Shown: positions 4,211 through 22,926, numbered from the stretch's first letter. The stretch is 24,000 nt of DNA from Verrucomicrobia bacterium LP2A (GCA_000526255.1 JAFS01000001.1:1243035-1267034); one strand, 5' to 3'. Notes: generated from the letters alone by a model not told the origin. Numbers and translations: made by a program.

Positions 4211-4432
4211 CGCACTTCCTCCTTTATTTCTTTTCGGCGCCCGCCTCAGCCCTAGACGAGATTGCACGATCGGGCCGATCCCAGACTCCATACCGGGAAC
4301 GTTCCTAATGCATTTGCACGCAACATAGCAATCACGACGTGCATTCTTGGCGCTCTTTCCGAGCGTCCGTCGCGGCCATCGCGCTCCATTCTTTTCGGGT
4401 TTCCGCCGATCGGTGCCCAATGTCGAGGCGAA

Positions 4433-4484
4433 CCAAAAAAGCACGCGCCCTTCGTCCCCCGGAAAGGGAGGCGAAGGGCGCGCT
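4433..4484 (-). terminator. Rho-independent terminator downstream of pmoB (copy 1)
   Basis: GC-rich stem CGCGCCCTTCG (4444-4454) / CGAAGGGCGCG (4472-4482), about 35 nt past the pmoB stop. The plus-strand A-run at 4435-4440 gives a U-tract on the minus-strand transcript. An identical element follows pmoB copy 2. Confidence 0.75.
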
Positions 4485-4516
4485 TGTTTCAGTTCTTTCG
4501 AATGAACCGGAGGAAC

Positions 4517-5764
4517 TTACATCTGCGTCACGCCGAACCTCGGAATCACGAGCTGATCGGCGACAGCGATGATGCTCCGCGCCCCGGTCGGGTCGCTGAA
4601 GAAGAGCAGACCGCCGAAACGATTCGTCGTCTCGTGGTACATCGTCAATCGCTGGTTCTCCCACTCCGCACTCGCCAGCACCACTTCGAGCACCTTGGTC
4701 TCTCCGGGCGCAACCGGCTCGGAGGGAGTGATCTTCATCGCACCTCCATAGACCTCGGGGAAGTCCGGATTCCAGGTATTCCCCGGAACCTGCTCGTTGA
4801 GGAAGCGTACATTGGCGGTGGTGAACTCCTTGAGAACCAAGGGCCGATCTCCGGTGTTGTGCACTTCCACCCGGAAGGCGAGCGTACGGCTCGGCACATC
4901 GTAGGTCGCATCCAGCACCTTCGCCTCCACGCGGGAAGGCTCGGGCGGAAGCGGCGCGTTACGGATGATCGTCTCCTGAATCGGAATCGTATGCGGGAAC
5001 TGCGACGCGGTCATCACGTTCGCCACCACGATCAGGCCGATCGTGCCCAGAGCAAAGACTACCGCCACGGTCTTATCCGCACCGCTGATCAGCTCCTTTG
5101 CCCGTCCAGCCGCGACCACTCCCAACCGCGAGGTGAAGGGCCTTCCCACCCAGAACCCAAGCCAGGCCACCCCAATCAGGGTGGTCACCAGGGTCCACAT
5201 GAGCATCCGGCTCTGTCCGTAGTTCTCCAGGTTGACCGTGTTGCCCAAGAGCGTCTTGATCGGATTGGTGAAGCCCTCGTGGCTTCCCTCGACGTCGACG
5301 TAGATGGACGGCCCGATGAGCGGACCCGCATCCTTCATGCTCAGCATGATCCCAACCGGCCAGTGACCCGGATACCGCGCCTTGGCGATCGTCTTGTACT
5401 CATAGGTGCCGCCAAGCTCCAGCAGCTCCGAGCAGGACATGAACCGATTGTTGATCCATGTACCTTCCCGCAGAAACTGGGGCCCGGGGACGAAGAAGTT
5501 GAGCCAGGAAATGCCCGAGAAGGCGATCTCCTTTGGCCAGATCGGCAGAAGCTGAAACTTCCCCGTCACCGTCATGTCGTCCCCAACCTTGAACTTCCGT
5601 CCGGAAAACTGGGTGTCGTAGAAGATCACCGTCCGCATCCGAAGGAAGCCCTCCTGCGACTTTTCGCCCAGAGCCCAAAGGCGGTTCGTCGGACCTGCCA
5701 GGATCATCCCCAGCAGGGCCAAGGCGCCCGCTCTCCCCATCATCCGCATTACTCTCTTTCTCAT
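4517..5764 (-). CDS. pmoB: Particulate methane monooxygenase subunit B (PmoB), copy 1
   Basis: Start set at the ATG at 5764 (MRKRVMRMMGR...), preceded by GAGGAGGAAGG. A signal peptide is followed by ALGEKSQEGFLRMRT, compared with AHGEKSQAAFMRMRT in Methylococcus PmoB. The protein has two cupredoxin-like halves separated by two TM helices. It is the last gene of a C-A-B arrangement. Confidence 0.95.
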   Translation of the reverse strand: MRKRVMRMMGRAGALALLGMILAGPTNRLWALGEKSQEGFLRMRTVIFYDTQFSGRKFKVGDDMTVTGKFQLLPIWPKEIAFSGISWLNFFVPGPQFLREGTWINNRFMSCSELLELGGTYEYKTIAKARYPGHWPVGIMLSMKDAGPLIGPSIYVDVEGSHEGFTNPIKTLLGNTVNLENYGQSRMLMWTLVTTLIGVAWLGFWVGRPFTSRLGVVAAGRAKELISGADKTVAVVFALGTIGLIVVANVMTASQFPHTIPIQETIIRNAPLPPEPSRVEAKVLDATYDVPSRTLAFRVEVHNTGDRPLVLKEFTTANVRFLNEQVPGNTWNPDFPEVYGGAMKITPSEPVAPGETKVLEVVLASAEWENQRLTMYHETTNRFGGLLFFSDPTGARSIIAVADQLVIPRFGVTQM

Positions 5765-5781
5765 CGTCTTCCTTCCTCCTC

Positions 5782-6546
5782 TTAGGCGTGCTTGACCTCG
5801 GTAGAAGCCGACTCGTAGGTCTTGAAGAACTTCGTGCTGCCGAAGAAGTGAGCACCCATGAGCCACCAGGGCACGTACATGCAGACCGAGACGAAGGCCG
5901 AGAAGAAGGCGGCCACGCCGGTCACCCCTCCCGCGAAGCTTCGCATCGTTCCCGTCTCCACGATCCGGAGATATTCCGGCGTCGAGGTACGGACATACAT
6001 GTAGTTGATCACGTCAGCGACGCTCATCAGTGAGCCCTGATACTCGACCGGCAGGTGGAACGGCGCAATCATCACCCAGTTGGTCGGGTAGAAGAGCCAG
6101 CCCCAGAGCTCGCCTCCCACCAGAGCGGTCACAATCCAGTTGCCGGTCAGCATCAACACGATGTCGAGCACGACCGCCGCCGGGATGAAGGTCTCCGGGA
6201 AGACGAAGTTGAGCGGATAGTGGGTCCATCCATTGAAGTTGATGTACCGGTTCATCCACTCGCCAAAGAGCAGGCCCAGGCAGCAGAGCGTAGCCCCGAT
6301 CGGCATCCGGAACCTCGTCCACAGAACCGCCTGCACCGCCGCCGGGAAGGTGATCTCCATGATCGGAGCCACGATCGGCCACCAGTTCCGATCTTTCCAG
6401 TCCACCCAGAACGACCAGTCTCCCGCCACCAGCATCTGATGGACATGGAAGCCCGCGATGAGCGCCAGGAAGGTCGACAGGAGAACGACGACGTCGAACT
6501 TGCGTGCGACCGCCTTCGCCTCCGCGTCTACTTGCGAATATTGCAT
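5782..6546 (-). CDS. pmoA: Particulate methane monooxygenase subunit A (PmoA), copy 1
   Basis: 254 aa. Segments conserved in PmoA/AmoA are present: GDWSFWVDWKDR, FPAAVQ, GEWMNRY, NFVFP, HLPVEYQG, RTSTPEYLR. The SD GAGGAGGAAAG lies 6 nt upstream of the ATG. Confidence 0.97.
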   Translation of the reverse strand: MQYSQVDAEAKAVARKFDVVVLLSTFLALIAGFHVHQMLVAGDWSFWVDWKDRNWWPIVAPIMEITFPAAVQAVLWTRFRMPIGATLCCLGLLFGEWMNRYINFNGWTHYPLNFVFPETFIPAAVVLDIVLMLTGNWIVTALVGGELWGWLFYPTNWVMIAPFHLPVEYQGSLMSVADVINYMYVRTSTPEYLRIVETGTMRSFAGGVTGVAAFFSAFVSVCMYVPWWLMGAHFFGSTKFFKTYESASTEVKHA

Positions 6547-6573
6547 TGGTTACTTTCCTCCTCTGCAAGAGTG

Positions 6574-6596
6574 GGGGCGGGGTGGCACCCCGCCCC
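6574..6596 (-). promoter_or_regulatory. Intercistronic GC-rich stem-loop between pmoC and pmoA (copy 1)
   Basis: GGGGCGGGGTggcACCCCGCCCC forms a perfect 10-bp stem with a 3-nt loop in the 106-nt pmoC-pmoA spacer. No U-tract follows in the sense orientation, so it is more likely an mRNA processing or stability element than a terminator. It is identical in copy 2. Confidence 0.55.
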
Positions 6597-6652
6597 TCTT
6601 CTTGCTTTCGTGTTTTCTTCTTTTTCCGATTCTCTCGGTCCCTTACGTGGGC

Positions 6653-7492
6653 CTACATCGCGCAGGCGACGCAAGCAGCGGGATCGCACGAGCTTTGCGG
6701 ATCCTTCATCACCTCAGCCGGGCTCTGAATCGGCTTGCCGTAGTAGATGTGGTTGATCAACGCCAGGACCCGCGGGCAAATCTGCAACCAGGTTCCGAGG
6801 ATCGCCAGCGCACCCCAGCCGAACGTCACGAAGCCCCAGTGGAGTGGAGCCACGAAGAGCTCCTCCATGAACCACCGGGTGTGGCCGAACTCGTTGAGTC
6901 CGACATTCGGGAAGATCATCGCCGGAGAGCCCACCAGGATCACATAGGGCAACGAAAATGCCTTAGCGAACTGGGGCAATCGGGTCATCGCGTAGACAAG
7001 CGAGCCCACACCGAAGATGATGTAGATGGGATAGCTCTGGTAGAACTCGATCACGTGGCTCGGGGTGAAGTCGGTATCCCGAATCACCGTCTGGTGCCAA
7101 GTACCGTCCTGCTCCGTGAAGTAGCTGGCACCCGCATACGCCGCATAGGTATAGGTCACGACAAAGAGTGCCAAGGCCCAATACCGCTTGAGCTCTTCTG
7201 CCGGGGAGAGGCGGTCGAGCGCCCGATCCCGCGTCATCCAGAGCCAGCCCCACAGCGCACCCGCCGTGATCGCTTCCATCACAAGCTCCGCGAAGAGCAT
7301 GCTCATCCAGTAGGTTTCATAATCCGCCGACGTGTAGTCGAGGCCCTTCGTCAAGGCAAAGAGCCTTTCGTACACATTGATCAGGACGTCAAAGACAATC
7401 AACGCGCCGATCGCAATCCCCGCACTTTTCCAGGAAAAGGCGGTAAGCGGCGGACGCGCGACAGCCGTTGCCGTCGTTTGTGTCTGTGCCAT
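6653..7492 (-). CDS. pmoC: Particulate methane monooxygenase subunit C (PmoC), copy 1
   Basis: Start set at the ATG at 7492 (MAQTQTT...), preceded by AGGGAGA. Conserved PmoC/AmoC blocks are present: WHQTVIRDTDFTPSHVIEFY and FGHTRWFMEELFVAPLHWGF, which contain the Asp/His/His metal-site residues. It is a multi-TM protein and the first gene of the operon. Confidence 0.95.
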   Translation of the reverse strand: MAQTQTTATAVARPPLTAFSWKSAGIAIGALIVFDVLINVYERLFALTKGLDYTSADYETYWMSMLFAELVMEAITAGALWGWLWMTRDRALDRLSPAEELKRYWALALFVVTYTYAAYAGASYFTEQDGTWHQTVIRDTDFTPSHVIEFYQSYPIYIIFGVGSLVYAMTRLPQFAKAFSLPYVILVGSPAMIFPNVGLNEFGHTRWFMEELFVAPLHWGFVTFGWGALAILGTWLQICPRVLALINHIYYGKPIQSPAEVMKDPQSSCDPAACVACAM

Positions 7493-7663
7493 ATCGTTTT
7501 TTTCTCCCTTTCTACCACTCTGCTTCTCTGCGCCCCGGATGCACCCTCCAAGGCGCGACCGCCAACCTACAGGGAGGACGGTCAAAAACCGCCCGGCCTT
7601 TCGCCAAACGGTATTTCGCAAGCAACCGTAACGCAAGACGGTCTTATGGCAAGGAAATTTCCG

Positions 7664-7692
7664 TATATAACGTATAAACTGTTTAGGGACAA
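7664..7692 (-). promoter_or_regulatory. Candidate sigma70-type promoter for pmoCAB copy 1
   Basis: On the minus strand, TTGTCC (7692-7687), a 17-nt spacer and TATATA (7669-7664) lie inside an AT-rich island in otherwise GC-rich DNA. This would give a leader of about 165 nt. Other -10-like hexamers exist nearby, so this is only one candidate. Confidence 0.3.
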
Positions 7693-7819
7693 TATGATGC
7701 TAATATATATCTCCTTGGCGCACGCTGTCGCTTGTCGCAATCATATTAAGGAGTTTCCATGAGCAGCATTAAGGATATTGCCCGATCTTCCGGTGCGTGT
7801 TTCCCTGATTGTAACATTG

Positions 7820-7870
7820 GTAAAAAGCACGCGCCCTTCGTCCCCCGGAAAGGGAGGCGAAGGGCGCGCT
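7820..7870 (-). terminator. Rho-independent terminator downstream of pmoB (copy 2)
   Basis: Same hairpin as copy 1: stem 7830-7840 / 7858-7868. The plus-strand A-run at 7822-7826 gives the U-tract on the minus-strand transcript. Confidence 0.75.
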
Positions 7871-7902
7871 TGTTTCGGTTCTTTCGAATGAACCGGAGGA
7901 AC

Positions 7903-9150
7903 TTACATCTGCGTCACGCCGAACCTCGGAATCACGAGCTGATCGGCGACAGCGATGATGCTCCGCGCCCCGGTCGGGTCGCTGAAGAAGAGCAGACCGC
8001 CGAAACGATTCGTCGTCTCGTGGTACATCGTCAATCGCTGGTTCTCCCACTCCGCACTCGCCAGCACCACTTCGAGCACCTTGGTCTCTCCGGGCGCAAC
8101 CGGCTCGGAGGGAGTGATCTTCATCGCACCTCCATAGACCTCGGGGAAGTCCGGATTCCAGGTATTTCCGGGAATCTGCTCGTTGAGGAAGCGTACGTTG
8201 GCGGTGGTGAACTCCTTGAGAACCAAGGGCCGATCTCCGGTGTTGTGCACTTCCACCCGGAAGGCAAGCGTACGGCTCGGCACATCGTAGGTCGCATCCA
8301 GCACCTTCGCCTCCACGCGGGAAGGCTCGGGCGGAAGCGGCTCGTTACGGATGATCGTCTCCTGAATCGGAATCGTATGCGGGAACTGCGAGGCGGTCAT
8401 CACGTTCGCCACTGCGACCAAGCCGATCGTGCCCAGAGCAAAGATCACCGCCACGGTCTTATCCGCACCGCTGATCAGCTCCTTCGCCCGTCCAGCCGCA
8501 ACCACTCCCAACCGCGAGGTGAAGGGCCTCCCCAGCCAGAACCCGAGCCAGGCCACCCCAATCAGGGTGGTCACCAGGGTCCAGATGAGCATCCGGCTCT
8601 GCCCGTAGTCCTCCAGGTTGATCGTGTTGCCCAAGAGCGTCTTGATCGGGTTGGTGAAGCCCTCGTGGCTTCCCTCGACGTCGACGTAGATGGACGGCCC
8701 GATGAGCGGACCCGCATCCTTCATGCTCAGCATGATCCCAACCGGCCAGTGACCCGGATACCGCGCCTTGGCGATCGTCTTGTACTCATAGGTGCCGCCA
8801 AGCTCCAGCAGCTCCGAGCAGGACATGAACCGATTGTTGATCCATGTACCTTCCCGCAGGAACTGGGGCCCGGGGACGAAGAAGTTGAGCCAGGAAATGC
8901 CCGAGAAGGCGATCTCCTTTGGCCAGATCGGCAGAAGCTGAAACTTCCCCGTCACCGTCATGTCGTCCCCAACCTTGAACTTCCGTCCGGAAAACTGGGT
9001 GTCGTAGAAGATCACCGTCCGCATCCGAAGGAAGCCCTCCTGCGACTTTTCGCCCAGAGCCCAAAGGCGGTTCGTCGGACCTGCCAGGATCATCCCCAGC
9101 AGGGCCAAGGCGCCCGCTCTCCCCATCATCCGCATTACTCTCTTTCTCAT
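7903..9150 (-). CDS. pmoB: Particulate methane monooxygenase subunit B (PmoB), copy 2
   Basis: Same start context as copy 1 (ATG at 9150). It differs from copy 1 at 9 of 415 residues, all in the central part of the protein. Confidence 0.95.
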   Translation of the reverse strand: MRKRVMRMMGRAGALALLGMILAGPTNRLWALGEKSQEGFLRMRTVIFYDTQFSGRKFKVGDDMTVTGKFQLLPIWPKEIAFSGISWLNFFVPGPQFLREGTWINNRFMSCSELLELGGTYEYKTIAKARYPGHWPVGIMLSMKDAGPLIGPSIYVDVEGSHEGFTNPIKTLLGNTINLEDYGQSRMLIWTLVTTLIGVAWLGFWLGRPFTSRLGVVAAGRAKELISGADKTVAVIFALGTIGLVAVANVMTASQFPHTIPIQETIIRNEPLPPEPSRVEAKVLDATYDVPSRTLAFRVEVHNTGDRPLVLKEFTTANVRFLNEQIPGNTWNPDFPEVYGGAMKITPSEPVAPGETKVLEVVLASAEWENQRLTMYHETTNRFGGLLFFSDPTGARSIIAVADQLVIPRFGVTQM

Positions 9151-9167
9151 CGTCTTCCTTCCTCCTC

Positions 9168-9932
9168 TTAGGCGTGCTTGACCTCGGTAGAAGCCGACTC
9201 GTAGGTCTTGAAGAACTTCGTGCTGCCGAAGAAGTGAGCACCCATGAGCCACCAGGGCACGTACATGCAGACCGAGACGAAGGCCGAGAAGAAGGCGGCC
9301 ACGCCGGTCACCCCTCCCGCGAAGCTTCGCATCGTTCCCGTCTCCACGATCCGGAGATATTCCGGCGTCGAGGTGCGGACATACATGTAGTTGATCACGT
9401 CAGCGACGCTCATCAGTGAGCCCTGATACTCGACCGGCAGGTGGTACGGCGCAATCATCACCCAGTTGGTCGGGTAGAAGAGCCAGCCCCAGAGCTCGCC
9501 TCCCACCAGAGCGGTCACAATCCAGTTGCCGGTCAGCATCAACACGATGTCGAGCACGACCGCCGCCGGGATGAAGGTCTCCGGGAAGACGAAGTTGAGC
9601 GGATAGTGGGTCCATCCATTGAAGTTGATGTACCGGTTCATCCACTCGCCAAAGAGCAGGCCCAGGCAGCAGAACGTAGCCCCGATCGGCATCCGGAACC
9701 TCGTCCACAGAACCGCCTGCACCGCCGCCGGGAAGGTGATCTCCATGATCGGAGCCACGATCGGCCACCAGTTCCGATCTTTCCAGTCCACCCAGAACGA
9801 CCAGTCTCCCGCCACCAGCATCTGATGGACATGAAAGCCCGCGATAAGCGCCAGGAAGGTCGACATGATGACGACCAGGTCGAACTTGCGTGCGACCGCC
9901 TTCGCCTCCGCGTCTACTTGCGAATATTGCAT
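9168..9932 (-). CDS. pmoA: Particulate methane monooxygenase subunit A (PmoA), copy 2
   Basis: 254 aa with 5 substitutions relative to copy 1 (V/L, L/I, L/M, L/F, F/Y). Confidence 0.97.
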   Translation of the reverse strand: MQYSQVDAEAKAVARKFDLVVIMSTFLALIAGFHVHQMLVAGDWSFWVDWKDRNWWPIVAPIMEITFPAAVQAVLWTRFRMPIGATFCCLGLLFGEWMNRYINFNGWTHYPLNFVFPETFIPAAVVLDIVLMLTGNWIVTALVGGELWGWLFYPTNWVMIAPYHLPVEYQGSLMSVADVINYMYVRTSTPEYLRIVETGTMRSFAGGVTGVAAFFSAFVSVCMYVPWWLMGAHFFGSTKFFKTYESASTEVKHA

Positions 9933-9959
9933 TGGTTACTTTCCCCCTCTGCAAGAGTG

Positions 9960-9982
9960 GGGGCGGGGTGGCACCCCGCCCC
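9960..9982 (-). promoter_or_regulatory. Intercistronic GC-rich stem-loop between pmoC and pmoA (copy 2)
   Basis: Identical 23-nt hairpin to 6574-6596. Confidence 0.55.
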
Positions 9983-10038
9983 TCTTCTTGCTTTCGTGTT
10001 TTCTTCTTTTTCCGATTCTCTCGGTCCCTTATGTGGGC

Positions 10039-10878
10039 CTACATCGCGCAGGCGGCACAAGCAGCGGGATTCACCGAGCTTTGCGGATCCTTCATCACCT
10101 CAGCCGGGCTCTGAATCGGCTTGCCATAGTAGACATGGTTCACCAGCGCCAGGACCCGCGGGCAAATCTGCAACCAGGTTCCGAGGATCGCCAGCGCACC
10201 CCAGCCGAACGTCACGAAGCCCCAGTGGAGCGGAGCCACGAAGAGCTCCTCCATGAACCACCGGGTGTGGCCGAACTCGTTGAGTCCGACATTCGGGAAG
10301 ATCATCGCCGGAGAGCCCACCAGTACCACGTAGGGCAACGAAAATGCCTTAGCGAACTGGGGCAATCGGGTCATCGCGTAGACAAGCGAGCCCACACCGA
10401 AGATGATGTAGATGGGATAGCTCTGGTAGAACTCGATCACGTGGCTCGGGGTGAAGTCGGTATCCCGAATCACCGTCTGGTGCCAAGTACCGTCCTGCTC
10501 CGTGAAGTAGCTCGCGCCGGCATACGCCGCATAGGTATAGGTCAGGACAAAGAGTCCCAAGGCCCAATACCGCTTGAGCTCTTCTGCCGGGGAGAGGCGG
10601 TCGAGCGCCCGATCCCGCGTCATCCAGAGCCAGCCCCACAGCGCACCCGCCGTGACCGCTTCCAAAACGAGCTCCGCGAAGAGCATGCCCATCCAGTAGC
10701 TCTCATAATCTGCCGACGTGTAGTCGAGACCCTTCGAAAAGGCGTAGAGCCTCTCGTACACGTTGATCAGGACGTCAAAGACAATCAACGCGCCGATCGC
10801 AATCCCCGCACTTTTCCAGGAAAAGGCGGTAAGCGGCGGACGCGCGACAGCCGTTGCCGTCGTTTGTGTCTGTGCCAT
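10039..10878 (-). CDS. pmoC: Particulate methane monooxygenase subunit C (PmoC), copy 2
   Basis: Start at the ATG at 10878 with the same SD context as copy 1. It has 15 substitutions relative to copy 1, three of them in the C-terminal Cys-containing tail. Confidence 0.95.
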   Translation of the reverse strand: MAQTQTTATAVARPPLTAFSWKSAGIAIGALIVFDVLINVYERLYAFSKGLDYTSADYESYWMGMLFAELVLEAVTAGALWGWLWMTRDRALDRLSPAEELKRYWALGLFVLTYTYAAYAGASYFTEQDGTWHQTVIRDTDFTPSHVIEFYQSYPIYIIFGVGSLVYAMTRLPQFAKAFSLPYVVLVGSPAMIFPNVGLNEFGHTRWFMEELFVAPLHWGFVTFGWGALAILGTWLQICPRVLALVNHVYYGKPIQSPAEVMKDPQSSVNPAACAACAM

Positions 10879-11233
10879 ATCGTTTTTTTCTCCCTTTCTA
10901 CCACTCTGCTTCTCTGCGCCCCGGATGCACCCTCCAAGGCGCGACCGCCAACCTACAGGGATGGCGGTCAAAAGACCGATCGGATTTACACGAAACGGCC
11001 TTTTAGCAGTGATCGTAGTCCAAAGGATAGGGATGGCAAGTAGATTTACGGTCCTTTTTCTAAGCCGTTCCCCTACGGAATATTCAGTGCTCTTCCCTCG
11101 CGATCGAACGGGATCACCCGGGAAGGCGCGGACGTCCTGGCACGAAAGAAAATGCGTCGTTCGCCGGCATTCCTCCGTACCTGGATGGGGATAGTTCTAG
11201 ACAGGGTGCTCCGCCCTTGTTGCAATCGCTGCC

Positions 11234-11866
11234 ATGAAGGGAATGCCGTCATCGGTACGCTACTTCGAGGAAGTGGCCGCGGAATGGGATACGCTCCGGA
11301 AGGGGTATTTTCGAGACGAGGTTCGGGAGAAGGCGCTCGATCTGGCGAAGGTCCAAGCGGGCGAGCGAGCAGCGGATGTCGGAGCGGGGACGGGTTTCCT
11401 GACCGAAGCCCTTCTGGGGCGGGGCCTGGAGGTCGTCGCCGTCGACCGTTCCCCCGCTATGCTTGCGGAGCTGACGAGGAAGTTCGGCGGTCGATCCGGC
11501 TTCCGGTGCATGCCAGGCGAGACCGATGCGCTGCCGCTCGAGGCGTCTACTGTGGACTGCTGCTTTGCCAACATGGTGCTCCACCATGTCGAGAGCCCGG
11601 AAGCGATGATCCGCGAGCTCTTTCGGATCCTGAAGCCCGGCGGCCGGGCGGTCCTCACCGATTTCGAGCGGCACGGCTTCGATTTTTTCCTGAGCGAGTA
11701 CTACGACCGCTGGCCCGGATTCTCTCCGGCCGAGGTGGCTTCCCTCTTCCGGGCGGCGGGCTTCGCTACCGTGGAGGCAGGCCCTCTTGGCGAAGTCTGC
11801 CAGGCGGAAAGCTCCACCGGCATCCGGGCGGTGGTGCCGATCTTCTTCGTCCGGGCGGAGCGATAG
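11234..11866 (+). CDS. Class I SAM-dependent methyltransferase (Methyltransf_11/UbiE-like)
   Basis: Contains SAM-binding motif I (DVGAGTGFLTE), the acidic post-I residue (VVAVD), and the later motifs FANMVLHHV and LKPGGRAV. It is divergent from pmoC copy 2. The substrate cannot be inferred. Confidence 0.85.
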   Translation: MKGMPSSVRYFEEVAAEWDTLRKGYFRDEVREKALDLAKVQAGERAADVGAGTGFLTEALLGRGLEVVAVDRSPAMLAELTRKFGGRSGFRCMPGETDALPLEASTVDCCFANMVLHHVESPEAMIRELFRILKPGGRAVLTDFERHGFDFFLSEYYDRWPGFSPAEVASLFRAAGFATVEAGPLGEVCQAESSTGIRAVVPIFFVRAER

Positions 11867-15627: not shown

Positions 15628-16710
15628 CTACCGGGCCTTTCCTTCGTGGATAATCGAGGGATCGAGGGGACCCTCGACCACGAGGCTCCCTCCCAGTCCT
15701 CTCTCCTGCTTGACAAAAAAGTGATCGACGAGCGGATAGCTTCCAGGAACCCTGGGAACGAATTCGATGAATCCGGCGCCCCCGGCCGGGACGAAAATCG
15801 AGCAGCTATTCTCCATGGGGGGAGTCGCCAGGCTTCCATCCTCGTAGATCCGTTCGAAGATCGCTCCGAGGGCGTGAAGGTTGGAGGAATCGTTGGGGCC
15901 CGCGTTCCCGAAGAAGATCCGGACAGCCTGGCCGACGCGGGCTTGCAGGGGGTGGCGAATCAGAGAGCCGACCGAGCCGTTGAAGACGTAGTAATTGGGC
16001 TTTCTCTCGAGGATCTTCGCAAGGTCCGGCTCCTGGGGGCCGGCTGCGCCAAAGGGGCCGGACGTGTAGATCTCCCCCTCCATGAAATAGAACTCCTTGT
16101 CCACCTTCGGAAGTCCCCCGGCCGGTTCCACGAGGATCAGGCCGTACATTCCGTTGGCAATATGCTGGGCGATCACGGGCGTCCCGCAGTGGTAGAGGTA
16201 GAGGCCCGCGTTGAGCGCCCGAAAGGTAAACACCCTCTCCCCGCCCGGAAGAGTCTGGCTCAGCATCGCCCCGCCCGAATACCCCCATGCCGCATGGAGG
16301 TCGACGGAGTGGACCATCCGGCTGCTCGGATCGTTGCGGAAGCGAACTTCGACCGTGTCGCCCACCCGGACACGCAGGAAGGGGCCCGGAACCTTCCCGT
16401 TGAACGTCCAGTAGCGGAAGGTAGCCCCGTCGGTCAGCCGCCCTTCGAGTTCCCGAGCCAGCAGCTCAATCTTGACGAGCTTGGGGGCGCGTCGGGGCAG
16501 AGGTCCGGGGAGGTCGGAAGGTTCACGGCTGATGTCGGGGACTCCGCCCTCCGCAGCCCGGCAGGCGACAGGACGGTTGCCGGCAAGAAGGCCCACGAGC
16601 AGGAGGAGAATCCCGGCGACAGACCAAGCGGAGGCCGGGGTCCGCCAGCCTTCCTTCATGCCTTTGAGCATAGCTTGGCCAAGAGGCCACGCAAGTCCGA
16701 ATAGCGGCAT
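15628..16710 (-). CDS. nirK: Copper-containing nitrite reductase NirK (class II, AniA-like)
   Basis: The T1/T2 copper ligand blocks are readable: HSVDLHAA, LYLYHCGTPVIAQHIANGMYG (H-C-x7-H-x4-M) and SSNLHALGAIFERIY, compared with SSFHVIGEIFDKVY in AniA. It has an N-terminal hydrophobic anchor or signal. The start is uncertain among 16710 (GGAGA upstream), 16671 and 16659. Confidence 0.92.
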   Translation of the reverse strand: MPLFGLAWPLGQAMLKGMKEGWRTPASAWSVAGILLLLVGLLAGNRPVACRAAEGGVPDISREPSDLPGPLPRRAPKLVKIELLARELEGRLTDGATFRYWTFNGKVPGPFLRVRVGDTVEVRFRNDPSSRMVHSVDLHAAWGYSGGAMLSQTLPGGERVFTFRALNAGLYLYHCGTPVIAQHIANGMYGLILVEPAGGLPKVDKEFYFMEGEIYTSGPFGAAGPQEPDLAKILERKPNYYVFNGSVGSLIRHPLQARVGQAVRIFFGNAGPNDSSNLHALGAIFERIYEDGSLATPPMENSCSIFVPAGGAGFIEFVPRVPGSYPLVDHFFVKQERGLGGSLVVEGPLDPSIIHEGKAR

Positions 16711-16749: not shown

Positions 16750-18024
16750 CTATTCCGGCTCGCTTTTTTCCGGCTCGCTCTTCGCGGGCGGCTCGCCTGC
16801 CTGGGGCTCATCCCGCTCCTCGGTCTGCGGGCAAAGGACGAAGGGGAGCACGACAACAGCCCAGAGGGCCAGGGCTCCCATCCAGAGAAGGGCCGAAAAG
16901 GAAAGGAGCGGGGACCGCCAGCTGGGGAGGTGGTCCGCCCCGATCCTCGTGATCATCGCCACCATCACTCCGCCGATGGCAAACTCGAAAGGAATGAAGC
17001 GGAACCGAAGCAGGAAGCCCCTCCCGCTCAGGCCGTAAATGACCTGCGCGCCCACCGACAGGATCATCAGCCCGACTCCGCCGAGGAAGAAGAGGTGGAG
17101 AGAGCCGGCCGGGGCGAGGAAAGAGGCGAGCAGCAACCCCAGGAGCGACAACGCAAGCGCGAGCCGGGAAGCGGCTGCGACGGTTCCCCGAGCCAAGAGC
17201 TCCGGGGAGGCGGGCAAGGTAAGAGCCAGATAGCCGGCGGACGTAGCCACCTTGAGCAGCCCCCCCAGGAGCCGCTTGCCGCTCGCCTCGAGAAAAAAGC
17301 TGGCGAGGATCAGCAGACCCGCTCCCGTGGCCACAAAAGCGGACCGGTTCCCTTTGCCGGAGGGACGGCCTGCCGCCGGCTGGGCGTCCGCACTCTCCCT
17401 GACGTAGAGCCGCGGGAGGAAGAAGGCGGTCAACCCGAGCAGCGGAAGCAGGGGCAGCCCCTGAAAGAGCAGAAGCGAGCTGAGCTGCTGGACCAGAGGG
17501 CTCATTCGGCTCCCGGCCGCCTTCTCCGCTTGCAGGAAGGCTCCCGCCACCGCTCCCGCCACTCCCAGCAGGACCAGAATGAAGCTCGGAGGTGCATTGT
17601 CCTTGCGGTGTCGAAAGCGCAAGGTAAAAAAAACCAGAGGCAGGAGAAGCGTGAAGGCAAAAAGCAGGTCGCCCGCCCACTGGCCTCCCAGAAGCTGGAG
17701 GACTCCGCCTGTCAAGAGGGTGACGGACACAAGGAGGAGCAGGTTTCCGCTGAGCGGCTTGATCCCGAGAAGGCGCGGCAGGGAGGTTCCGAGGAAACCG
17801 AGAAGAAAGGACGCGACGAAGCCTTCGATCATGAGTCGGGGATGGCTCTGGGCCGGCGGAGAGGGAGCCCATCCCAGGGACGCCAGCGGCCAGACCGCGA
17901 CGCCCAGAAACCCGAGGACCGTGCCCAAGGGAAAGAGGATCCGGTAGGGCTCCCGCGCGCAGCGACGCAGGTAAGCGCCCGGCGGGAGCGGCCCGGTCAG
18001 CTCAGGTGTCGTGTCCATTTCCAT
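16750..18024 (-). CDS. nnrS: NnrS-family membrane protein (NO-response, heme/copper membrane protein family)
   Basis: About 420 aa with about 12 predicted TM segments. The N-terminal EPYRILFPLG..LG...V.W motif is typical of NnrS, and the position immediately upstream of nirK on the same strand is the classical context. The family call is from memory of the motif and that context. Confidence 0.75.
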   Translation of the reverse strand: MEMDTTPELTGPLPPGAYLRRCAREPYRILFPLGTVLGFLGVAVWPLASLGWAPSPPAQSHPRLMIEGFVASFLLGFLGTSLPRLLGIKPLSGNLLLLVSVTLLTGGVLQLLGGQWAGDLLFAFTLLLPLVFFTLRFRHRKDNAPPSFILVLLGVAGAVAGAFLQAEKAAGSRMSPLVQQLSSLLLFQGLPLLPLLGLTAFFLPRLYVRESADAQPAAGRPSGKGNRSAFVATGAGLLILASFFLEASGKRLLGGLLKVATSAGYLALTLPASPELLARGTVAAASRLALALSLLGLLLASFLAPAGSLHLFFLGGVGLMILSVGAQVIYGLSGRGFLLRFRFIPFEFAIGGVMVAMITRIGADHLPSWRSPLLSFSALLWMGALALWAVVVLPFVLCPQTEERDEPQAGEPPAKSEPEKSEPE

Positions 18025-18385
18025 GATCCACTACTATTTTCTCTAGGGGCGGGCTTGCGCTGCGGATCGCCCTTATACCACGCCCTTCCGGCTGCGATCC
18101 TTCTTTTTCTCCGAGTCTTGCAGAATTTGCCAAGCTCTTGCTCCGACCCGACTTCCAACCTTTACCCGCCCGATGAGGCTGGCAAAAGGCGCTTCCTCGG
18201 GTCCCCGCGCACCGGTTGTCGAGCCGCGGTCTCTTGTCCATTTTGCCGCATTGTTGCCTCGACTGCGGGGCCGCATTCGCTCCATTCTTGTGCTCCGCCC
18301 GCCACGGGAGGCGAGCAAGCCGGCAGGTCGTGCCGCTCTACGCCCCACGTTGCTGGGAGGCCGCCGGGCCTTGTCCCGTGAACGG

Positions 18386-18988
18386 ATGGGGATCGTGATG
18401 TTGCGGAGCTTCGGTTTTCTGGTGATCGGCGGACTCGCCCTCATGGGCGTGCTGACCCTGGTTGGGGTCGTTCTCTCCATCCGCCAGGGGTTCGGCTCCC
18501 GCGAAGCTCCTCCCGCCTGGGAGGCCTTCGTCGCGAAACGGATCTACCGGCTCTCGATCCCCGAGGAGGCGCGCTTTCAGCAGAATCCCTTTCCGCCGAG
18601 CCGCGGCTGGCTCAAGCAGGGGATGGAGCACTACGCCGACCATTGCGCCCAATGCCACGCGAACAACGGAAGCGGGGAGACCGAGATGGGCAAGAGCCTC
18701 TACCCGCGGCCCCCGGACATGCGGAAGCCGGCAACTCAGCGCCTCACCGACGGGGAGCTCTACTACATCATCCATAACGGCATCCGGCTCACGGGAATGC
18801 CGGCCTGGGGAGAAAACGGCCACGATGCGGAGAGCTGGAAGCTCGTCCTCTTTCTCCGCCACCTGCCCAAGCTCACCCGGGAAGAGGAGCTCCAGATGGA
18901 GCAACTCAACCCGAAGGGTCCGAAGGAGCGGGCGGAGGAGCAGGACGAGGAGCACTTCCTCGAAGGAGAGGACAAAAGCTCTCCTTGA
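18386..18988 (+). CDS. Membrane-anchored monoheme c-type cytochrome
   Basis: It has a single CAQCH heme-binding motif with a downstream Met-ligand block (IRLTGMPAWG), an N-terminal TM anchor (FGFLVIGGLALMGVLTLVGVVL) and an acidic C-terminal tail. The start is at 18386 or 18398. It is divergent from nnrS-nirK. Confidence 0.85.
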   Translation: MGIVMLRSFGFLVIGGLALMGVLTLVGVVLSIRQGFGSREAPPAWEAFVAKRIYRLSIPEEARFQQNPFPPSRGWLKQGMEHYADHCAQCHANNGSGETEMGKSLYPRPPDMRKPATQRLTDGELYYIIHNGIRLTGMPAWGENGHDAESWKLVLFLRHLPKLTREEELQMEQLNPKGPKERAEEQDEEHFLEGEDKSSP

Positions 18989-19502: not shown

Positions 19503-21707
<2,205 letters not shown>

Positions 21708-21764: not shown

Positions 21765-21900
21765 TCATTTTTCGGGTGAATGCAACCAGCCTGCCCGTGA
21801 GCCTCTTTCGGCCGCTTCGCCGGAGCAAGCTGCGGATTGGGCAGCACGCCCTCCTTCGAGGCTTTCGGTTGCCTTGGCAAAGGGAGAGGGGAGAGATACG

Positions 21901-22926
21901 ATGTCATCTTCCGTGGACACCATCCCCGATTCGCATGGCCGGGACGGGCGCGGCCCGGGCGCAGGCTCCGGTGGGGAAGCCTCCGACCTCCCCGATCTGC
22001 AACCGAGCCACCTTGTGGCCTTCGCGCTGGTGGCCGAGCTCGGCAGCGTAAGCTTGGCCGCCCGGCGCCTCCATGTCGTTCAAGCGGCGGTCTCGGCACA
22101 GCTGCGCCGCCTACGGGAGGCCGTCGGAGATCCTCTCTGCCATTTCGAGCAGGGCCATGTCCATCTCACTCCTGCTGGTGTGGAGCTCCGGAAGCATGCC
22201 CTCCGGGTGGCCGAAGGGGTCGCAGCGGCCCGAGAATTCGCCTGGAGGCTGCAAAGGCGGATCGAAGGCCGGCTCCGGATCGCCCTGACCGTCACGATCG
22301 GGAGCTACTACCTCCCCTGCCCTCTCGTCGCCTTTCAGGATCGGTATCCGGGCATCCGGGTCGAGATTGAGACCGGATCCTCCCGGGAGATCGTCGGGCG
22401 CGCAGAGGCGTTCGACCTCGTCTTCGTCGAGGAGCCGCTGGAGGGGCGCCCTCCGCCCGATTACGTCCGCAAGCCTTGGATCGAGGAAGAGATTCTGCTG
22501 GTGACCCCTCGGGAGAGCCGCCTCGCGCGCGACTTTCCCAAGGGGGTGGCGCTCGGTCACCTGCAAGGGGAGAAGGTTCTCTGGCGGGAAGCCGATTCCG
22601 GTGTCCGCCGAGCGGTCGAGAGAGCGTTCAGCGCGCTGCGGATCGAGCCTCCGGGCCATGTCGAGCTGCCGAGTGCTCAGGGAGTCATCGAGGCCGCCCG
22701 GGCCGGGCTCGGGATCGGCTTCATTGCGACCAGCGTGCTGCCGGAGGAGGATCCTGGGCTAGCCGCGCTGCGGATCAACCCTCCCGAGGGGCTCTGGTGG
22801 AGCCTCGCCATCCTTGCCCCCCCTCCGGCGCAACGCTCCGCCGGCGCCGCCGCGTTCCTGGCCCTGCTCGAGCAAATCCCCGGCAGGATGGCCCGCGGCG
22901 GCATCCCGGCTCCGAAAGGCGGCTAG
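21901..22926 (+). CDS. LysR-family transcriptional regulator (possibly OxyR-like by context)
   Basis: N-terminal wHTH (LVAFALVAELGSVSLAARRLHVVQAAVSAQLRRLREAVGDPL) followed by a LysR substrate-binding-type C-terminal domain. Start set at the ATG at 21901, preceded by GGGGAGAG; the track start is a TTG at 21874. It is divergent from katG. Confidence 0.85.
   Translation: MSSSVDTIPDSHGRDGRGPGAGSGGEASDLPDLQPSHLVAFALVAELGSVSLAARRLHVVQAAVSAQLRRLREAVGDPLCHFEQGHVHLTPAGVELRKHALRVAEGVAAAREFAWRLQRRIEGRLRIALTVTIGSYYLPCPLVAFQDRYPGIRVEIETGSSREIVGRAEAFDLVFVEEPLEGRPPPDYVRKPWIEEEILLVTPRESRLARDFPKGVALGHLQGEKVLWREADSGVRRAVERAFSALRIEPPGHVELPSAQGVIEAARAGLGIGFIATSVLPEEDPGLAALRINPPEGLWWSLAILAPPPAQRSAGAAAFLALLEQIPGRMARGGIPAPKGG

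Follow-up and report, generated by a model that had tools for sequence, protein, structure and literature searches.

The stretch analyzed here comprises 24,000 nt of the genome of Verrucomicrobia bacterium LP2A (GCA_000526255.1, JAFS01000001.1:1243035-1267034) and is referred to as the window, with positions counted from its first nucleotide. It holds two complete pmoCAB operons for particulate methane monooxygenase (pMMO), which follow each other head to tail on the minus strand (the strand of all features below unless stated otherwise) and are nearly identical. As set out below, they very probably descend from an ancient tandem duplication whose copies have been kept alike by recombination, each operon in a promoter context of its own. 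The gene order C-A-B of pMMO and other copper membrane monooxygenase (CuMMO) operons is present twice, and both gene sets were confirmed by Pfam as AmoC, AMO and Monooxygenase_B (PF04896/PF02461/PF04744), full length, with E<1e-94. In the downstream operon, pmoC (6653-7492, 279 aa; PF04896, E=1.6e-94) also matches PmoC of solved pMMO (7ev9_C and related, E=1.7e-83), pmoA (5782-6546, 254 aa) is recognized by PF02461 (E=4.4e-101), and pmoB (4517-5764, 415 aa; PF04744, E=1.5e-112) aligns to 3RGB_A (E=3.8e-89). The upstream operon consists of pmoC (10039-10878), pmoA (9168-9932) and pmoB (7903-9150), whose translations differ from the downstream copies at 15, 5 and 9 residues, respectively, the same counts as given in a preliminary description of this DNA; all nine PmoB changes lie within 4787-5236, as had been claimed there, corresponding to residues 177-326.

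In alignment to PmoC of Methylococcus capsulatus (7ev9_C, 7s4h), the metal-site stretches 'TEQDGTWHQT..DFTPSH' and 'NVGLNE.GHT.WFMEELFVAPLH' are kept, with the DGTWH...PSH and N..H...H metal-site residues identical to those of the solved protein, and no amino-acid difference between the two window copies falls in these stretches. We take the Asp/His/His and the Asn/His/His sets to be the CuC and CuD sites, respectively, of M. capsulatus pMMO. In PmoB, the alignment to 3RGB_A places replacements at the M. capsulatus CuB histidines (H33L, H137P and H139G, identical in both copies), and loss of these histidines is presumably the known hallmark of verrucomicrobial PmoB. Judged by sequence, the window enzymes are pMMO of the verrucomicrobial type, the CuB loss placing PmoB in that subgroup and not outside pMMO. 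Given that both copies are identical at the metal-site positions, the main functional difference between the two operons is most likely regulatory. The window proteins fall in 90%-identity clusters of Methylacidimicrobium sequences and are not identical to those of strains AP8, B4, 3B, 3C or 4AC; the high-GC relative of Methylacidiphilum suspected at the outset is thus a high-GC Methylacidimicrobium, an acid-loving methanotroph. In cultured strains of this genus grown on methane, no methane monooxygenase other than close homologues of the window enzymes has been reported (PMC7907005, PMC8498564).

A repeat finder recovered a single direct-repeat family in the window, with a spacing of 3386 nt, and an ungapped comparison of the downstream unit (4436-7575, copy 1 of the preliminary description) with the upstream one (7822-10961, its copy 2) gave 73 mismatches over 3140 nt (97.6-97.7% identity) and no insertions or deletions (indels), as expected from the exact, indel-free period noted earlier. 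Each unit comprises the 83-nt 3′ part of a leader, pmoC, pmoA, pmoB and a terminator. Both proposed edges were recovered: the 5′ edge lies 83 nt upstream of the pmoC ATG (7492/10878) and the 3′ edge is the last T of the terminator T-tract (4436/7822). At the 5′ edge, 7377-7575 is 100% identical between the copies and 11 of the next 23 positions differ, so that divergence steps from 0% to about 38% in leader/promoter sequence. The upstream regions had been called unrelated past this point, which is true beyond about -175, where no similarity between the copies was detectable in a shuffle test (11062-11161 versus the spacer, P=0.23), and is not true between -84 and about -175, where decayed homology is significant: the -84 to -183 segments of both copies align with a score of 20, against a shuffle mean of 2.9 +/- 1.8 and a maximum of 13 (P<0.0005). 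The residual patch singled out previously (7646-7663 versus 11033-11051) is real and falls in this zone. Past the 3′ edge, the same kind of test detected no similarity between the copies (P=0.92). The two units are joined by a unique, non-repeat stretch of 246 nt.

The age of the pair and the cause of its likeness were addressed with the complete genomes of AP8 (locus L012) and B4 (locus L014), in a six-sequence alignment of both copies from the three genomes. The tandem pmoCAB pair is present in three of three complete genomes, with within-genome identities of 98.9% in AP8, where the copies differ at 31 sites, and 97.9% in B4 over about 3.1 kb. Outside the unit, window and B4 are orthologous by position (upstream region 88% over 449 nt, spacers 83% over 409 nt, downstream region 81% over 339 nt), and, past the leader, the upstream region of a genome is unrelated to its own spacer. 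The AT-rich part of the window spacer (7669-7821), in which GC content falls to 0.536, is likewise orthologous to the B4 spacer and unlike the region upstream of the upstream operon. Of the informative sites in the flanks, 129 support grouping by position and 1 supports grouping by genome. Within the unit, the counts are 146 for genome, 13 for position and 1 for the crosswise pattern. The duplication certainly predates the split between window and B4, and probably the radiation of the genus. The age argument rests on these two genomes and the AP8 flanks were not used, being in alignment too diverged from window and B4 for a clear positional signal (in the 5′ flank, 15 sites favored genome, 13 position and 6 the crosswise pattern).

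Neighbor-joining nucleotide trees of pmoC, pmoA and pmoB each recovered the within-genome pairs of window, B4 and AP8 with 100% bootstrap, whereas grouping by position received 0%. This is the clustering predicted by gene conversion and excludes its alternative, in which each copy would join its orthologue. Synonymous divergence (dS) between the window paralogs is 0.104/0.029/0.051 for pmoC/pmoA/pmoB, compared to 0.14-0.24 for window-B4 and 0.35-0.49 for window-AP8 orthologs, and homogenization extends to the two intergenic spacers (pmoC-pmoA and pmoA-pmoB), to the leader part of 83 nt and to the 3′ untranslated region (3′UTR). Since paralog dS is below ortholog dS and intergenic parts are included, purifying selection alone cannot explain the likeness. 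The ratio of nonsynonymous to synonymous divergence (dN/dS) is 0.10-0.29 over all comparisons; positive selection between the copies was considered and rejected, as their values of 0.19-0.29 show no excess over those of orthologs. Along the unit, divergence is not uniform, and the sliding-identity and dS/dN comparison proposed beforehand thus excludes a uniform divergence: differences are concentrated in patches at 4781-5264 (4.8%), 6448-6492 (15.6%), 6646-6760 (11.3%) and 7127-7376 (8.0%), and the longest identical run is 514 nt, versus 204 expected (P=1e-4). Tested over all sites, the clustering has P<=1e-4, and it remains significant when third-codon positions are taken by themselves, three statistics giving P=0.017, 0.0007 and 0.0001. 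A duplication older than the species split, paralogues closer to each other than to their positional orthologues also at silent sites, and mosaic tracts with discrete endpoints together amount to concerted evolution. The initial suggestion of an older duplication with its coding part homogenized by gene conversion is thus strongly supported by the trees, site patterns, dS and flank orthology.

The 13 by-position sites are not scattered over the unit, clustering at 7352/7303, 7127-7133, 6669-6688, 5028/5032 and 4491. Homoplasy would produce equal numbers of by-position and crosswise sites, so that 13 versus 1 (P about 0.001 by a binomial estimate) argues against it. We read these sites as old paralog-specific states that would have escaped conversion in both the window and the B4 lineage. 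They encode eight amino-acid differences common to the two genomes (F47L, G64S, L72M, V269C, N270D and A275V in PmoC; V245I and A246V in PmoB), all conservative except those in the C-terminal tail of PmoC. The first three PmoC differences lie near the N-terminal membrane helix and the last three in a Cys-rich CxxC tail. As a separate observation, Methylacidimicrobium PmoC C-termini (window 6653-6700 and 10039-10086) end in a Cys-rich tail, PAAC(A/V)AC(A)M, with a CxxC motif, which is absent from the Methylacidiphilum PmoC sequences compared here. The downstream PmoC of window and B4 has an extra Cys269, and the tail holds three of the conversion-resistant differences.

The limits of near-identity differ between genomes. 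On the 5′ side, near-identity in the window reaches -83, that in AP8 about -55, that in B4 about -100 and that in Methylacidimicrobium fagopyrum 3C about -154; on the 3′ side the terminator is included in window and AP8, and in B4 near-identity ends at the pmoB stop codon. Thus, the edges are lineage-specific endpoints of conversion tracts and not fixed features. The downstream 3′UTR of B4 is a different sequence, whereas that of the window matches the spacer-type 3′UTR of B4 at 95%; B4 thus keeps a distinct downstream 3′UTR that was overwritten in window and AP8. As homology ends at about -175 and at the terminator, conversion cannot run past those points, and the ancestral repeat unit, as reconstructed from the sequences, took in the core promoter, starting at about -175 and ending with the pmoB terminator.

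Draft genomes extend the picture to the wider genus. The contigs of the metagenome-assembled genome (MAG) STB62 (L008/L011/L009) fit the layout U-CAB-spacer-C'A'B'-D, with C'A' 85% identical in nucleotides to the upstream copy and the pmoB ends 97.8% alike, and its spacer resembles those of 3C and of Methylacidimicrobium cyclopophantes 3B well past the shared leader (75% over 248 nt and 71% over 272 nt, respectively). In trees, the C'A' genes of the MAGs STB62 and CA_2019_TPIn_140 group together, and this clade branches outside the remaining pmoC and pmoA of the genus. A diverged C'A' next to a close pmoB' looks like partial escape from homogenization, and the simplest reading of these sequences would be an ancestral pair whose downstream copy was overwritten in most lineages. 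The products of pmoC' and pmoA' in the two MAGs (L001/L002 in CA_2019_TPIn_140) have 77-83% amino-acid identity to those of the window, with pmoB' similar in sequence to the upstream copy, and CA_2019_TPIn_140 contains either three operons or two strain variants in one bin. In 3C, a 1454-nt contig (scaffold6.6, L007) runs from a pmoB end through a unique spacer to a pmoC start, differing from the main scaffold (L004) at 3 of 997 nt in pmoB and 13 of 335 nt in pmoC, and a 3001-nt contig of 3B (L003) carries pmoA-pmoB-spacer-pmoC. These contigs suggest that 3B and 3C have tandem operons that were collapsed in short-read assemblies. A junction contig was not found for 4AC, where L019 ends after pmoA and L005 starts within pmoB, the two without overlap. 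A single pmoCAB operon has been stated for 3B and 4AC (PMC7163025) and for the genus generally (PMC8498564).

To characterize the region outside the near-identical zone, 15 upstream regions and spacers across the genus were aligned over the 230 nt upstream of pmoC. A near-invariant TAcGrT box (TACGGT at 7625-7630, TACGAT at 11012-11017) is preceded, 16 nt upstream, by a TTGCCA box (7647-7652 and 11034-11039), the latter being the patch mentioned above. The decayed-homology zone of the downstream copy (7576-7668, -84 to about -176) thus holds the first leader hairpin, a -10-like TACGGT and a -35-like TTGCCA, with the boxes conserved across the genus, and that of the upstream copy (10962-11055) holds TACGAT and TTGCCA, matched by a consensus scan as TTGCCA-16-TACGAT. 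On this evidence, the predicted core promoters of the two copies would be diverged homologues. The proposal that the repeat boundaries exclude the promoters is therefore only partly correct: the near-identical zone omits the core promoter and hairpin 1, but the promoters are homologous and the edge lies inside a conserved leader, in the 5′ arm of its hairpin 2. Two further motifs, a 17-nt block GGAAACTCCTTAATA common to the window and B4 spacers (window about 7743-7759) and a TATACG-N3-TATACG direct repeat just upstream of the -35-like box (about 7662-7676; B4 keeps TATACG...ATACG), are candidate regulator binding sites for the downstream operon.

The leader, of about 126 nt and with three hairpins, precedes every Methylacidimicrobium-type pmoC. 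In the downstream operon it is predicted at 7493-7620 (minimum free energy [MFE] -51.8 kcal/mol, z=-3.0; covariance model 155 bits), where the hairpins (about 7588-7612, 7557-7583 and 7530-7556) lead up to a purine-rich Shine-Dalgarno region, and in the upstream operon at 10879-11007 (MFE -52.2 kcal/mol, z=-4.1; 142 bits), where the first hairpin has diverged in sequence and still pairs. Of the cells in the consensus structure, 93% are paired, and compensatory changes occur in 10 of its 28 pairs, a result reached by 0 of 500 shuffles, and slid controls had at most 49% paired. The leader was located in the relatives at L004 8137-8279, L014 8118-8260 and 4732-4875, L012 8132-8274 and 4789-4934, L019 1338-1480, L015 415-555, and L002 2995-3142. 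The covariance model gave no significant match in Methylacidiphilum (L020; best score 13 bits, E=0.85), which leaves no basis for extending the leader to the sister genus, and the leader had no match in Rfam. An Rfam scan of 4300-11400 at E<=1 returned two matches to the Pseudomonas small RNA P35 on the terminator hairpins, which, at 28 and 26 bits versus a gathering threshold of 70, were rejected as generic hairpins. Transcription may start near -126, to judge by the sequence, and our best guess for the leader is a 5′-proximal structure stabilizing the mRNA, though it may instead act as a regulatory 5′UTR.

Both operons end in intrinsic terminators. The one after the upstream pmoB (7822-7869) has a 17-bp GC-rich stem followed by UGCUUUUU (MFE -42.7 kcal/mol, z=-5.6), and a matching one follows the downstream pmoB (4436-4483; MFE -43.4 kcal/mol, z=-5.0). 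With a strong terminator after each pmoB, each operon looks like a transcription unit of its own. For AP8, PMC7907005 reports RNA-seq at maximal growth rate in which pmoCAB2 (tags 0896-0898) was high and pmoCAB1 (0893-0895) hardly expressed. Based on the tag order C1, A1, B1, C2, A2, B2 in the supplement and on the plus-strand location of the AP8 locus, the expressed operon is the downstream, spacer-driven one. The two operons of the window strain may also be regulated separately.

The account that we regard as very likely is that of an ancient tandem pmoCAB duplication with the copies homogenized by recombination. Recurrent homologous recombination between the direct repeats would overwrite one copy by the other in patches, by short-tract gene conversion possibly combined with cycles of unequal crossover, and synonymous and intergenic sites are homogenized along with the coding ones. 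A few short tracts, mainly in pmoC and the middle of pmoB, would be left as relics of older divergence. The -83 edge would be the end of the latest conversion tract, set against a leader/promoter about 38% diverged, and the 3′ edge is the place where homology ends altogether and which conversion cannot pass. With its own promoter context and its own terminator, each of two near-identical enzymes could be regulated separately.

Could the copies instead be alike because they are young, having arisen by recent tandem duplications independently in each lineage and without conversion? The high identity and lack of indels in the window would fit, and the M. capsulatus genome paper took its own pmo copies for recent duplications (PMC517821). 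However, the spacer and the upstream and downstream flanks are orthologous by position between window and B4, the 13 clustered paralog-specific sites are found in both genomes as opposed to 1 crosswise, divergence is strongly non-uniform with the diverged leader/promoter adjoining 100% identical sequence, and three or more identical events with the same junction are implausible; we therefore hold this to be very improbable. Slightly less credible still is that strong purifying selection on the enzyme alone would suffice, with no recombination: pMMO subunits are indeed highly constrained, as the dN/dS values indicate, but this constraint would not homogenize silent sites (paralog dS 0.03-0.10 versus 0.14-0.49 for orthologs), gene spacers, the 83-nt leader part and the 3′UTR, nor cluster third-position differences or make the trees group by genome. 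A falsely duplicated or mis-joined repeat in the assembly is hardly conceivable. Draft genomes of the genus clearly mishandle the pmo locus, yet the window copies differ at 73 sites and are joined by 246 unique nt, and the same architecture with an orthologous spacer is found in two independently finished genomes, AP8 having been assembled from Illumina and Nanopore reads (PMC7907005) and B4 being a single contig of 2.37 Mb.

A further possibility, doubtful in our view and still much less so than these, accepts conversion and attributes the 5′ edge to selection for differential regulation, which would eliminate any tract replacing a promoter, along the lines of the earlier remark that each copy keeps its own promoter. 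In its favor, near-identity does not extend past the -35 region in any of the genomes, the AP8 copies are expressed very differently (PMC7907005), and the array has been retained throughout the genus despite the tendency of direct repeats to be deleted. Against this, the position of the edge ranges from -55 to -154 across genomes and is inside the leader, not at the promoter boundary; a -35 box of the U type, TTGCCA, is present in the spacers of window and B4, suggesting that the core promoter was once overwritten by an older tract; and a passive account suffices, since conversion requires homology to either side and so stops at the repeat end near -175. That selection also maintains the conversion-resistant tracts, making the isozymes distinct (e.g., in copper loading or membrane assembly), and that the three-hairpin leader is an operon-specific post-transcriptional regulatory RNA, is a speculative extension to which we give little credence.

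Several points also weigh against the duplication and homogenization account itself. Gene conversion and expansion/contraction by unequal crossover are not separable on these sequence data, and some clusters of differences unique to one window copy (e.g., 7358-7376) could have been acquired from outside the genome instead of being relics. A pre-speciation age is strictly demonstrated for the split between window and B4 and, by way of spacer similarity, for 3C, 3B and STB62; the AP8 flanks have diverged too far to prove positional orthology with the window past the leader. As promoter elements, the boxes match the consensus weakly (9/12), with 4 hits versus 2.0 +/- 1.4 in shuffles. Finally, the AP8 reads were mapped with CLC to copies differing at 31 sites, and the assignment of multi-mapped reads may inflate the expression difference, whose direction is probably right and whose size is uncertain.

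The tandem layout itself is not new, as two almost identical pmoCAB operons were already reported for AP8 and LP2A (PMC8498564). AP8, of the same genus, has the same adjacent C-A-B-C-A-B layout, a within-genome identity of 98-99%, and neighbors matching those of the window, with a methyltransferase on the upstream side and, downstream, a hypothetical gene and a multicopper oxidase. The available parts of PMC8498564 and PMC7907005 were found to discuss neither how old the duplication is nor gene conversion, the positions of the edges or the leader, and a full-text literature search on gene conversion together with pmoCAB found nothing relevant. Concerted evolution of verrucomicrobial pmoCAB with mapped tract ends thus appears to be new, the phenomenon itself being of a known kind: long-lasting concerted evolution has been described for amoCAB, haoAB and cycAB copies in Nitrosomonadales (PMC6053082). 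The amoCAB case belongs to the same copper membrane monooxygenase superfamily, with near-identical copies in conserved synteny that cluster within species though the duplication predates speciation, and the same argument was used there, namely that synteny rules out recurrent recent duplication (PMC6053082). It differs in that the amo copies are dispersed on the chromosome, whereas those of the window are head to tail and 246 nt apart, making unequal crossing-over possible as well, and in that the window belongs to the phylum Verrucomicrobiota and its conversion endpoints can be mapped to the nucleotide inside a leader.

The sister genus offers a different comparison. Adjacent, oxygen-responsive pmoCAB1 and pmoCAB2 operons had been cited for Methylacidiphilum, which PMC8498564 bears out: SolV, V4 and Kam1 carry head-to-tail pmoCAB1-pmoCAB2, like the window, and their operons are oxygen-regulated and differentially expressed. 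Unlike in the window, the copies are clearly diverged ('complete but distinct' in the same source), fall on separate branches in our trees, and have no match to the Methylacidimicrobium leader model upstream. Methylococcus capsulatus Bath, likened here by its published description, also has two complete near-identical pmoCAB copies, which were however interpreted as a recent duplication (PMC517821).

Near-identical pmoA copies matter beyond this locus. The gene is a standard phylogenetic and environmental marker for methanotrophs, and under concerted evolution its copy number and identity in Verrucomicrobiota cannot be read as recent duplication; the within-genome pmoA variants of the window differ by 10 nt. 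Published single-operon statements for some Methylacidimicrobium may reflect collapsed repeats, which, if true, would change comparisons of operon number in the family. The locus is also a natural promoter-swap system, in which enzymes differing at 29 residues in total stand behind diverged promoters and leaders, so that regulation and enzyme differences could be separated by counting copy-specific single-nucleotide polymorphisms. It is a clean and useful case for the field, if an unsurprising one to the specialist.

Some features within and around the array remain to be mentioned. In both copies, the pmoC-pmoA intergenic region has a hairpin (6573-6597 and 9959-9983) of 11 bp with 9 G-C pairs, flagged on the plus strand by a terminator scan, which could be an intercistronic processing or stability element. 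Two open reading frames (ORFs) antisense to pmoB, 4262-5785 (plus strand, 507 aa) and 7759-9171 (plus strand, 470 aa), were rejected as genes; the latter has an AAGGAG Shine-Dalgarno sequence and an ATG in the spacer, but the ATG is ATT in B4. These open frames are probably a by-product of the GC-rich antisense strand. Upstream of the first operon, a divergent class I methyltransferase gene (11234-11866, plus strand; Pfam Methyltransf_11, E=1.7e-22) serves as a synteny anchor, with the same neighbor in AP8, B4 and 4AC, and the second operon is followed, in all genomes examined, by a conserved hypothetical gene that has no Pfam match (3596 to about 4250). The surroundings are rich in genes related to copper, redox and stress (66-1802 on the plus strand, 15628-16710 and 16750-18024 on the minus strand, 18173-18988 on the plus strand, 19503-21689 on the minus strand and 21874-22926 on the plus strand), which encode two multicopper oxidases, an NnrS-family protein, a c-type cytochrome, a catalase-peroxidase and a LysR regulator. 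In B4, an IS605-family OrfB/TnpB is inserted upstream of the methyltransferase flanking the pmo array (L014 2104-3441) and is absent from that place in AP8.

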